Assembly (NCBI RefSeq): GCF_003334315.1
Contig: NZ_QOWR01000039.1
Length of the DNA stretch: 44,728 bases
Source: Escherichia coli
GTDB taxonomy: Bacteria > Pseudomonadota > Gammaproteobacteria > Enterobacterales > Enterobacteriaceae
Reading direction: 5' to 3' (one strand)
Positions 35,618 to 36,532 of the stretch are shown here, one piece after another (positions within the stretch are counted from its first letter, which is position 1; every line of letters starts with the position of its first letter). Below the pieces are notes generated by a model. The model had not been told where the DNA came from. It searched no databases and saw nothing but the letters and a program-made list of their open reading frames with translations. Made by a program: the position numbers and the translations under genes.

Positions 35618-36028
35618 TTAGATTTTAAGTTTGTCCTGGGCTACAACGACAGGTTTTCCGGATGTGTCGATGACTCCTACCGTCGGTACGCCATTTTTGA
35701 TTTCGAAGAACGGTTTGTTGCTACCTGAGCACAGTTGATTGTCCCCGTATTCAATCATTTGTGCTTTCCCGGTTTTCAGGTTAACTACCGAGACAGTGTA
35801 GTCGTAGCACCAGGCACCACCACGTTCAAGCACGAAAACATAGCTGTTATCTTTATAGTTGAACTGATTCTTTGTCTGGCAATTCATACCGTCAATTTCG
35901 GTACAGGAAAACGCTTCTGTAGTATTAACGTATTTGATGTTATTTGGCAGTTTTACTTGTTTCGCAGTAGCGAAGACAGAGAACAGAATAGTTACAGCAA
36001 CGAGTAAAGTTTTGATAAAAGTTTTCAT
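35618..36028 (-). CDS. small secreted protein, unknown function
   Basis: 136 aa; N-terminal signal peptide MKTFIKTLLVAVTILFSVFATA; 4 Cys in mature part; 15 bp downstream of the 163-aa gene. Confidence 0.6.
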   Translation of the reverse strand: MKTFIKTLLVAVTILFSVFATAKQVKLPNNIKYVNTTEAFSCTEIDGMNCQTKNQFNYKDNSYVFVLERGGAWCYDYTVSVVNLKTGKAQMIEYGDNQLCSGSNKPFFEIKNGVPTVGVIDTSGKPVVVAQDKLKI

Positions 36029-36043
36029 GATAGACTCCTTAAA

Positions 36044-36532
36044 TTAGTTAAACGCAGCTACGTAGTTTTTCACCAGATACGCGAATTCATGCACGCCAAT
36101 TTCACCGAACCAAACCAGGTAGGCCGGGTCATCTAAACCAAAGTAACGGTAGCCAACAACTTCATGGGTTTTTGGGTTATAGAGTGTTACGATAAAGTCC
36201 CAGCCGCAGGTATTGGCTTTGCAACCGTCGCCCTGGAGCCAGACTGTATCGTTAATGTTTACTGGCGTGATACCTCCACCAGGGCCATCCATATAGCCGC
36301 CTTTACCGAACATGCCGCTCAGTCCGACCGGTTTTAATGCTTTGTCGATAGCGGCTTTGTAGGTAGCGTCACCTTCGTACAACTCGTACGTTGATGGACA
36401 CGCTCCAGGTTGTTCAGCCCAGGCTTCCGGGTTACAACTAAGTGCTTGTTTTACGGTAGCCGCTTCTGCGTTAAAGTTAAAGCCCGTGAACAGAACCGCC
36501 AGAAATAACATAAGGGTATGTAAACGTTTCAT
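36044..36532 (-). CDS. small secreted protein with Ivy-like C-K-x3-C-G loop, unknown function
   Basis: 163 aa from internal start MKRLHTLMLFLAVLFTGFNFNAEA (signal peptide); the ORF track's 263-aa form runs into an AT-rich promoter-like region. Confidence 0.55.
   Translation of the reverse strand: MKRLHTLMLFLAVLFTGFNFNAEAATVKQALSCNPEAWAEQPGACPSTYELYEGDATYKAAIDKALKPVGLSGMFGKGGYMDGPGGGITPVNINDTVWLQGDGCKANTCGWDFIVTLYNPKTHEVVGYRYFGLDDPAYLVWFGEIGVHEFAYLVKNYVAAFN

Follow-up and report, generated by a model that had tools for sequence, protein, structure and literature searches.

We analysed a 44,728-nucleotide stretch of an Escherichia coli contig (NZ_QOWR01000039.1; hereafter, the window) and concentrated on two small adjacent genes of its minus strand, A and B, that lie in a genomic island between genes for a patatin-like phospholipase and a DUF932 protein. 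Comparisons of sequence profiles and of structure models place the product of A in the Ivy superfamily, as a divergent member of this group of inhibitors of lysozyme-like enzymes. We propose, with a little less than even confidence, that A is an Ivy-type loop inhibitor of a peptidoglycan glycosidase, with a phage enzyme as the leading target, and that B is independent cargo of the same cassette. The Ivy-like identity of A was already stated for this gene in a 2024 preprint on phage susceptibility (bioRxiv 10.1101/2024.04.20.590424). We add to it that the annotated reading frame is chimeric, that gene B lies under the same polar knockdown guide, and that the genes are part of a mobile cassette. 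The elements at the centre of the analysis are the following.

36044-36532, minus strand: gene A, 489 nt (162 aa plus stop), putative precursor of a divergent Ivy-superfamily protein, with conserved cysteines C33, C45, C104 and C109
36461-36532, minus strand: signal peptide of A, residues 1-24, MKRLHTLMLFLAVLFTGFNFNAEA, read by eye, with predicted cleavage between AEA and AT
36206-36223, minus strand: codons of the loop C104-K-A-N-T-C109, which correspond to the CKPHDC inhibitory loop of Ivy
36029-36043, minus strand: A-B spacer, 15 bp, with a strong Shine-Dalgarno sequence (AAGGAG) 7 nt before the start of B
35618-36028, minus strand: gene B, 136-aa orphan precursor with invariant cysteines C42, C50, C74 and C100, predicted to be all-beta and to be cleaved between ATA and KQ

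Gene A encodes a divergent member of the Ivy superfamily

Direct assignment of A to a family with Pfam, NCBIfam and PADLOC gave nothing significant, and intermediate sequences were required. Among PDB sequences, A itself touched none but E. coli Ivy (E about 1), in an alignment that puts CKANTC opposite CKPHDC. Only E. coli and Shigella supplied close homologues (58-98% identity). We built a profile from these, and among 1.8 billion representative proteins it retrieved 58, of which the distant ones are four-cysteine Ivy-like proteins (20-30% identity, E 1e-21 to 1e-4) that carry C-[EKQ]-x-H-[ND]-C loops. Close and distant homologues were then combined in an alignment of 33 members (A3), 26 of which match Pfam Ivy at E ≤1e-3 and 30 at E ≤0.1. 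The A3 profile matches the Ivy structures 1gpq (1.8e-13) and 1uuz (1.5e-9). A tblastn search with mature A also found a Klebsiella plasmid protein named 'Ivy family c-type lysozyme inhibitor' in RefSeq (32.6% identity, E 1e-9). The structure model of A has the antiparallel sheet flanked by helices that is characteristic of the Ivy fold.

The loop of A is part of a GDGCKANTCGW segment and lies between model strands 96-103 and 113-119. Its two cysteines, C104 and C109, are invariant across the 33 homologues and align with both cysteines of CKPHDC. In the model, a five-residue loop protrudes at the conserved hairpin, and we infer that a disulfide closes it. The original prediction, which had been made from the DNA letters alone, had drawn the parallel between this segment and the CKPHDCG loop of Ivy and had pointed out that the loop histidine is missing. 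Both remarks hold: the alignments put CKANTC on CKPHDC, and CKANTC is what the window allele reads. The other alleles have CKANAC, CKAHAC, CKSNAC or CKSDAC. At least 90% of the members of its clade share an extra cysteine pair with A (C33, C45). By sequence comparison, A belongs to a sub-clade of the Ivy superfamily marked by this second cysteine pair, and it does not qualify as an Ivy orthologue because it falls below the thresholds of the family's hidden Markov models and has neither the histidine nor the aspartate of the loop.

The differences from the characterised proteins are substantial. Relative to Ivy (YkfE) of E. coli and IvyP1 of P. aeruginosa (1gpq, 1xs0, 1uuz, 4ps6; PF08816; NF007443), A is about 16% identical, lacks the histidine and aspartate in its CKANTC loop, has an additional N-terminal cysteine pair (C...CP) and a longer C-terminal helix, and is the product of a mobile island and not of the ivy locus. 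Its nearest sequence relatives form a clade of four-cysteine Ivy paralogues, e.g., P0107 (which matches Pfam Ivy) and Klebsiella WP_228706714. These are 20-33% identical to A (E 1e-9 to 1e-21) and have the same cysteine pairs and domain layout, but, unlike A, their consensus loop (C-E/K/Q-x-H-N-C-G) includes the histidine. WP_228706714 is encoded, like A, in a CP4-type island, where it follows GTPase and WYL genes. No characterised member of this clade was found in the literature that we looked at.

Since A shares the fold of Ivy, has the conserved disulfide loop and is likely to be periplasmic, it most likely works like Ivy. In the latter, the histidine of CKPHDC contacts the catalytic residues of lysozyme. 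The mechanism of Ivy is the insertion of this loop into the lysozyme active site (PMC5608400; PMC7677548), and lytic transglycosylases are also inhibited by Ivy-type proteins (PMC5608400). By analogy, A would act in the periplasm on a glycan-strand-cleaving enzyme (a lysozyme-type muramidase or else a lytic transglycosylase), with its disulfide-closed C-K-A-N-T-C loop projecting from a beta-hairpin into the active-site cleft and plugging it. Since the loop histidine is replaced and the tip of the loop varies between alleles, the specificity of A probably differs from that of the housekeeping Ivy.

Ivy-like domains also occur in other architectures among the distant relatives. They are fused to a C-terminal four-cysteine domain in P0098, P0099 and P0132. 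A Klebsiella plasmid protein with Ivy-like and four-cysteine domains (L014 5905-6843) is encoded after GTPase and WYL genes in a CP4-57-like island. P0130 combines an Ivy-like domain with a caspase-like C-terminal region, and P0138 has DnaJ, zinc-ribbon and membrane segments N-terminal to the Ivy-like domain. A phage origin of A was rejected, as tblastn found no relatives of A in 50,697 phage records, a result that says nothing about the target of A.

A and B are conserved genes, most likely co-transcribed

The coordinates bear out the arrangement initially described, i.e., two adjacent minus-strand genes separated by 15 bp. The size given for B (136 aa) is correct, whereas that given for A (163 aa) has to be reduced to 162 aa plus the stop codon. 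The spacer and its Shine-Dalgarno sequence are preserved in two of the other loci that we compared (L009 and L011), and the shortness of the spacer together with the strong Shine-Dalgarno sequence before B makes it most likely that A and B form one transcript. Both N-termini, as first proposed, look like signal peptides: they have one or two basic residues, then a hydrophobic segment about 15 residues long, and finally an AxA site (both read by eye). The N-terminus of A has the typical n-h-c regions before its AEA-A site, a pattern that is kept in homologues; in the distant ones the signal peptide likewise sits directly before the domain. The same segment appears in the structure model as an N-terminal helix of low confidence. 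The mature proteins have four cysteines each, invariant among alleles, and we infer that both are exported and form disulfides.

A and B are under purifying selection, with ratios of nonsynonymous to synonymous substitution rates (dN/dS) between alleles of 0.12-0.22 for A and 0.14-0.26 for B. Of 5426 complete E. coli genomes, 2248 (O157:H7 and O103 strains included) contain the pair at a coverage of at least 80%, and copies at least 99% identical are found in 1452 complete genomes. The low dN/dS and this wide presence show that A and B are real genes and not chance open reading frames (ORFs).

The annotated 227-aa protein as a chimera

RefSeq has a different model for this region, in which positions 36044-36727 encode a single 227-aa 'hypothetical protein'. 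Its additional part corresponds to the following element.

36533-36727, minus strand: remnant of a third secreted-protein gene, C, 65 codons for a signal peptide and 44 aa, in frame with A

The remnant resembles the N-terminus of C, a secreted protein of 180 aa (49% identity, E 4e-18) whose complete gene precedes A in an island variant (L003 7098-7640). Protein C belongs to no known family; it is complete in island variants other than that of the window. In L009 and L010 there is an in-frame stop inside the same remnant, and the A gene behind it is still intact. The MKRL start of A and a GGAG/GGAA motif 8-10 nt upstream of it are conserved in every context examined, even where A comes 17 nt after a different gene. 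The homology to C, the stop in L009 and L010, and the conserved start and ribosome-binding site thus all indicate that the RefSeq model is a chimera, i.e., a pseudogene remnant fused in frame to a complete A precursor. The start codon of the original prediction, with its ribosome-binding motif conserved across contexts, is therefore preferable to that of RefSeq, and the annotation needs correcting before the protein is expressed.

The remnant also changes the view of the region upstream of A. The 330 bp between the patatin stop and the start of A (36533-36862) had been described as an AT-rich, promoter-like region. It is indeed AT-rich (GC about 0.39-0.40 vs 0.53-0.59 in the flanks), but it is not empty promoter DNA, as it contains the 65-codon remnant. 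A simple scan of the minus strand upstream of A found no sigma-70 consensus promoter.

Gene B is an orphan and not the partner of A

Nothing matched B in Pfam, NCBIfam, PADLOC or the PDB sequences, and its family is confined to Enterobacteriaceae. The structure model is all-beta, with seven strands, and of low confidence (predicted local distance difference test, pLDDT, 61.7). The obvious candidate families were PliC/MliC, PliG and PliI, which are, like B, small, exported, disulfide-containing and beta-rich. However, B has no sequence or fold match to them and its sequence lacks the SGxxY motif. The notion of a pair of inhibitor-like proteins hence applies to A, by its superfamily and fold, and not to B, for which neither sequence nor structure comparison gave an inhibitor-like or any other known fold or family, PliC/MliC included.

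The closest link that we found for B is with Y, an exported 129-aa protein encoded next to it on large plasmids. When the mature sequences were aligned with hhalign, the probability was 46% (E 2e-4), against at most 0.8% in shuffled controls, and B is probably a distant paralogue of Y. In turn, Y aligns with the C-terminal four-cysteine domain of the two-domain Ivy-like proteins with a probability of 22% (E 1e-3) and all four cysteines in register, which is only suggestive of a relationship. Homology of B itself to the Ivy-fused four-cysteine domain (P0098, P0099, P0132) would have meant a gene-fusion link between A and B; this candidate was rejected, since BLASTP gave nothing and the hhalign probabilities were 0.4-1.2%. 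We also rejected an obligate co-evolving pair, because A is found without B (L003), a B-like gene is found without A (L015), and the relationships between alleles are incongruent. B is a secreted orphan with two probable disulfides, carried as independent cargo, and is not a cognate partner of A. The defence-system models of PADLOC-DB matched none of A, B and C.

The cassette occupies a cargo site of mobile elements

The region is 100% identical to the chromosome of E. coli, e.g., of strain Combat11I9. The island occupies the CP4-44 site adjoining tmaR, yeeA and sbmC, where K-12 has flu and yeeR. Upstream of the cassette are three genes, and two hairpins delimit it.

38832-41228, minus strand: dynamin/CrfC-like GTPase gene, 798 aa
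37930-38835, minus strand: RdcB/YjcZ-family gene, 301 aa
36863-37933, minus strand: patatin-like phospholipase gene, 356 aa, no signal peptide, with GxGxxG starting at residue 12
36827-36843, minus strand: terminator-like hairpin and T-run just past the patatin stop, which parts the patatin operon from remnant-A-B
35447-35476, minus strand: strong terminator-like hairpin downstream of B (13-pair stem and T-run), the end of the unit

The remnant, A and B are a separate, low-GC transcription unit. It is followed on the minus strand by genes for DUF932, antirestriction, RadC/YeeS, YeeT and CbeA/CbtA proteins.

The contents of the slot between the patatin and DUF932 genes vary between strains. In the L003 variant, the DNA from the dynamin to the patatin gene is 95.9% identical to the window and that of DUF932 is 92.5% identical, whereas A is only 77% identical; B is absent and the full C gene is present. 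On plasmid pB39_V the slot lacks A and contains a remnant of YfjT, a gene for a DUF4339 membrane protein and a gene resembling B (35% identity). On plasmids of about 222 kb in Enterobacter and E. coli, A and B are two in a series of small exported proteins, YfjT, X, A, B and Y. Their surroundings there lack genes for dynamin, RdcB and patatin, and the DNA similarity between plasmid and chromosomal copies is confined to A and B. The synonymous divergence (dS) between alleles is 0.6-2.3 for A and B and 0.03-0.5 for the flanking genes, and the allele relationships of A and B are incongruent with each other. The varied contents, the high dS and this incongruence together identify the slot as a cargo site, with old alleles of genes for exported proteins being swapped as cassettes. 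Rapid diversification in place was rejected as the source of the allelic differences: with a gene-wide dN/dS of 0.12-0.26 and a dS much higher than in the flanks, these fit old, exchanged alleles and not gene-wide positive selection. Directly upstream of A in L003 (about 7960-8000), the DNA encodes the last residues of the plasmid protein X (ending in ELIGRITLNRSAE and a stop), which implies that this L003 cassette derives from a plasmid-type X-A arrangement.

The large replicons (plasmids or phage-plasmids; Enterobacter ludwigii NZ_CP134650, E. coli NZ_CP173450) have nearly all their genes annotated as hypothetical. Their tandem arrays of five or six small exported proteins (L005 6598-9309, L011 6106-8309, L013 13207-15411) are followed by genes for an SMC-like ATPase, a GNAT protein, a Macro-like protein and an SLT protein.

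A published T7 phenotype maps to the cassette

The preprint mentioned above describes hypo_04657 of E. coli O121, with an Ivy-like domain in its AlphaFold model and a 'CKANTC' loop, whose knockdown by CRISPR interference (CRISPRi) raises T7 fitness. The T7 efficiency of plating was about 1.0-1.5 in the knockdown vs 0 in the control, the same effect as for wecA, galE and rfaH (bioRxiv 10.1101/2024.04.20.590424). We located the guide in the window.

36644-36663, minus strand: CRISPRi guide target for hypo_04657, exact match to the oligo of supplement file 2, GGGAATATAAAAATTACAGC

This is the single exact match of the guide in the window, where none is expected by chance; with the same CKANTC loop and the Ivy-like model, it identifies hypo_04657 as the locus of A. 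The guide site is within the remnant, at least 112 nt upstream of the start of A, and is upstream of B too. The preprint treats the 227-aa ORF as a single protein with a 'transmembrane' half and so misses its remnant-plus-precursor structure; it also overlooks the downstream gene B, the polarity of CRISPRi and the mobile-cassette nature of the locus. As B is downstream of the same guide site, the published phenotype is not yet assignable to A. The target proposed there for hypo_04657 was T7 lysozyme, which the preprint did not put to the test.

The guide is AT-rich, and hypo_04657 behaves in the O121 screen exactly like the O-antigen and enterobacterial common antigen (ECA) genes. The O-antigen cluster (window 1-13000) is about 23 kb from A, with the his operon and other units in between, so simple polarity onto the O-antigen genes cannot explain the phenotype.

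Target of A and alternative explanations

There is still debate over what use Gram-negative bacteria have, behind their outer membrane, for periplasmic inhibitors of lysozyme-like enzymes; the usual answers are host lysozyme and their own lytic transglycosylases. If the T7 result holds, the enzymes of phages or competitors become a third answer, and one that can be tested with A, an Ivy relative with a variable loop that is borne by islands and plasmids and present in about 41% of complete E. coli genomes. The interest of the locus rests mainly on a phage phenotype that is so far unverified.

The T7 knockdown phenotype makes a phage-borne enzyme the leading candidate target of A, and the cassette would then be a barrier to phage carried by mobile elements. 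A stronger version, in which A, alone or with B, by itself makes E. coli O121 refractory to T7 by blocking a phage peptidoglycan-cleaving or envelope-crossing step, seems unlikely to us. If true, Ivy-type 'lysozyme inhibitors' would gain a role in phage defence and B would be a new defence-associated family. A functional analogue exists in Spackle of phage T4, a periplasmic inhibitor of the phage virion lysozyme that stops infection (PMC7677548). It would resemble A in being a small periplasmic protein directed against a phage peptidoglycan hydrolase, in its case the gp5 tail lysozyme, and it acts in superinfection exclusion; it differs in its unrelated all-helical fold, its mode of inhibition and its being encoded by a phage instead of a host island.

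Several observations weigh against an Ivy-type inhibitor directed at a phage enzyme. The family assignment of A is indirect: Pfam gave no match to A even at E 10, and the only NCBIfam match, Ivy NF007443, had 13.5 bits (E 0.048) for a cut-off of 180; sister alleles reach E 4e-4 with the same model. The window allele does not conform to the CKPHDC consensus, whose histidine it lacks. If translation began at the start of the remnant, the Ivy domain would probably end up in the wrong place. In T7 itself, the so-called lysozyme, gp3.5, is an amidase of the cytoplasm, and gp16 can do without its transglycosylase motif under standard conditions. In its size, the T7 effect of the knockdown matches that of the O-antigen and ECA knockdowns listed alongside it in the preprint. 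Inhibition of T7 enzymes hardly accounts for such an effect, which may stem from off-target action of the guide or from a secondary surface mutation. Finally, because the dCas9 block is polar, the phenotype could be due to B or to the remnant ORF.

Other targets for A have to be weighed on the same evidence. That A is a second Ivy-type inhibitor of animal lysozymes (c-type or other), directed against the host, with B as unrelated cargo, is in our view unlikely. The superfamily and fold of A would fit, some alleles retain a loop (CKAHAC) very near CKPHDC, 41% of complete E. coli genomes carry the cassette, those of O157:H7 and O103 strains among them, and Ivy aids lysozyme tolerance and virulence in E. 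coli and Y. pestis (PMC5608400). However, the window allele has no loop histidine, E. coli already has a chromosomal ivy, and the T7 phenotype would be left unexplained. Somewhat less likely still is that A restrains a lytic transglycosylase of the bacterium or of the element (the plasmid SLT protein, or MltB or Slt of the host) and so limits self-inflicted damage to the wall, as proposed for Pseudomonas Ivy. Ivy proteins do inhibit MltB and E. coli lytic transglycosylases in vitro (PMC5608400), and a gene with an SLT domain lies about 7 kb downstream of A-B on the plasmids. Yet this gene is not adjacent to A, no SLT gene is near A on the chromosomal island, and a comparable proposed inhibitor, PhiA of Brucella, did not inhibit its supposed partner in vitro. 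We give a similarly low likelihood to the possibility that A, perhaps with B and the neighbouring small secreted proteins, provides orphan immunity against the peptidoglycan-degrading toxins of competitors, such as muramidase effectors of type VI secretion systems (T6SS) or pesticin-like bacteriocins. The changing combinations in the slot (C remnant, A and B; C and A; YfjT remnant, DUF4339 and B-like), the arrays of five or six exported proteins on the 222-kb plasmids, and the reassortment of A and B alleles older than their flanks, which resembles cassette exchange, are what one might expect of it; but we saw no toxin gene or T6SS context, found no homology to known immunity families, and overall dN/dS carries no sign of diversifying selection, which leaves an argument by analogy only.

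The two remaining explanations concern the locus itself. In one, which is improbable, the cassette is cargo in decay that currently serves no function in this strain, and the T7 phenotype is an artefact, due to off-target guide activity or to a secondary rough mutant. In its favour, A has a pseudogene remnant fused to it, truncated or fused variants are numerous in databases, and the T7 effect, obtained with one guide and reported in a preprint, is of an implausible size, the same as for O-antigen genes. This contrasts with A and B being intact, under purifying selection and at least 99% identical in 1452 complete genomes, with conserved ribosome-binding sites. The original prediction had considered that the pair, next to a phospholipase operon, could be immunity proteins or inhibitors of a phage or host hydrolase; an immunity or inhibitor role for the neighbouring dynamin-RdcB-patatin operon is now largely refuted and we consider it very improbable. 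The two units are adjacent and on the same strand in CP4-44-type islands, but the patatin has no signal peptide and would be cytoplasmic, which puts enzyme and inhibitor in different compartments, and a terminator-like hairpin separates the units. Furthermore, A-B occurs on plasmids without the operon, the operon occurs elsewhere with other cargo and without A, and the Ivy fold is known only as a glycosidase inhibitor. We keep inhibition of a peptidoglycan glycosidase, with a phage enzyme as leading target, as our tentative reading of A.

Other features of the island

The dynamin/CrfC-like, RdcB/YjcZ and patatin genes (36863-41228) have overlapping stops and starts and look like one operon. 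PADLOC gave only weak matches for this module (LeoBC 8.6e-5; phospholipase effector 8.4e-5), which could be a membrane-remodelling or defence module. In Combat11I9, the cbtA toxin and YeeP-like GTPase genes are annotated as frameshifted pseudogenes (L001 8936-9309 and 18047-18924, equivalent to about 32.1-32.5 kb and 41.4-42.3 kb of the window), and IS66 elements and AAA-ATPase fragments are found at the far end of the island. This suggests that the island is decaying.

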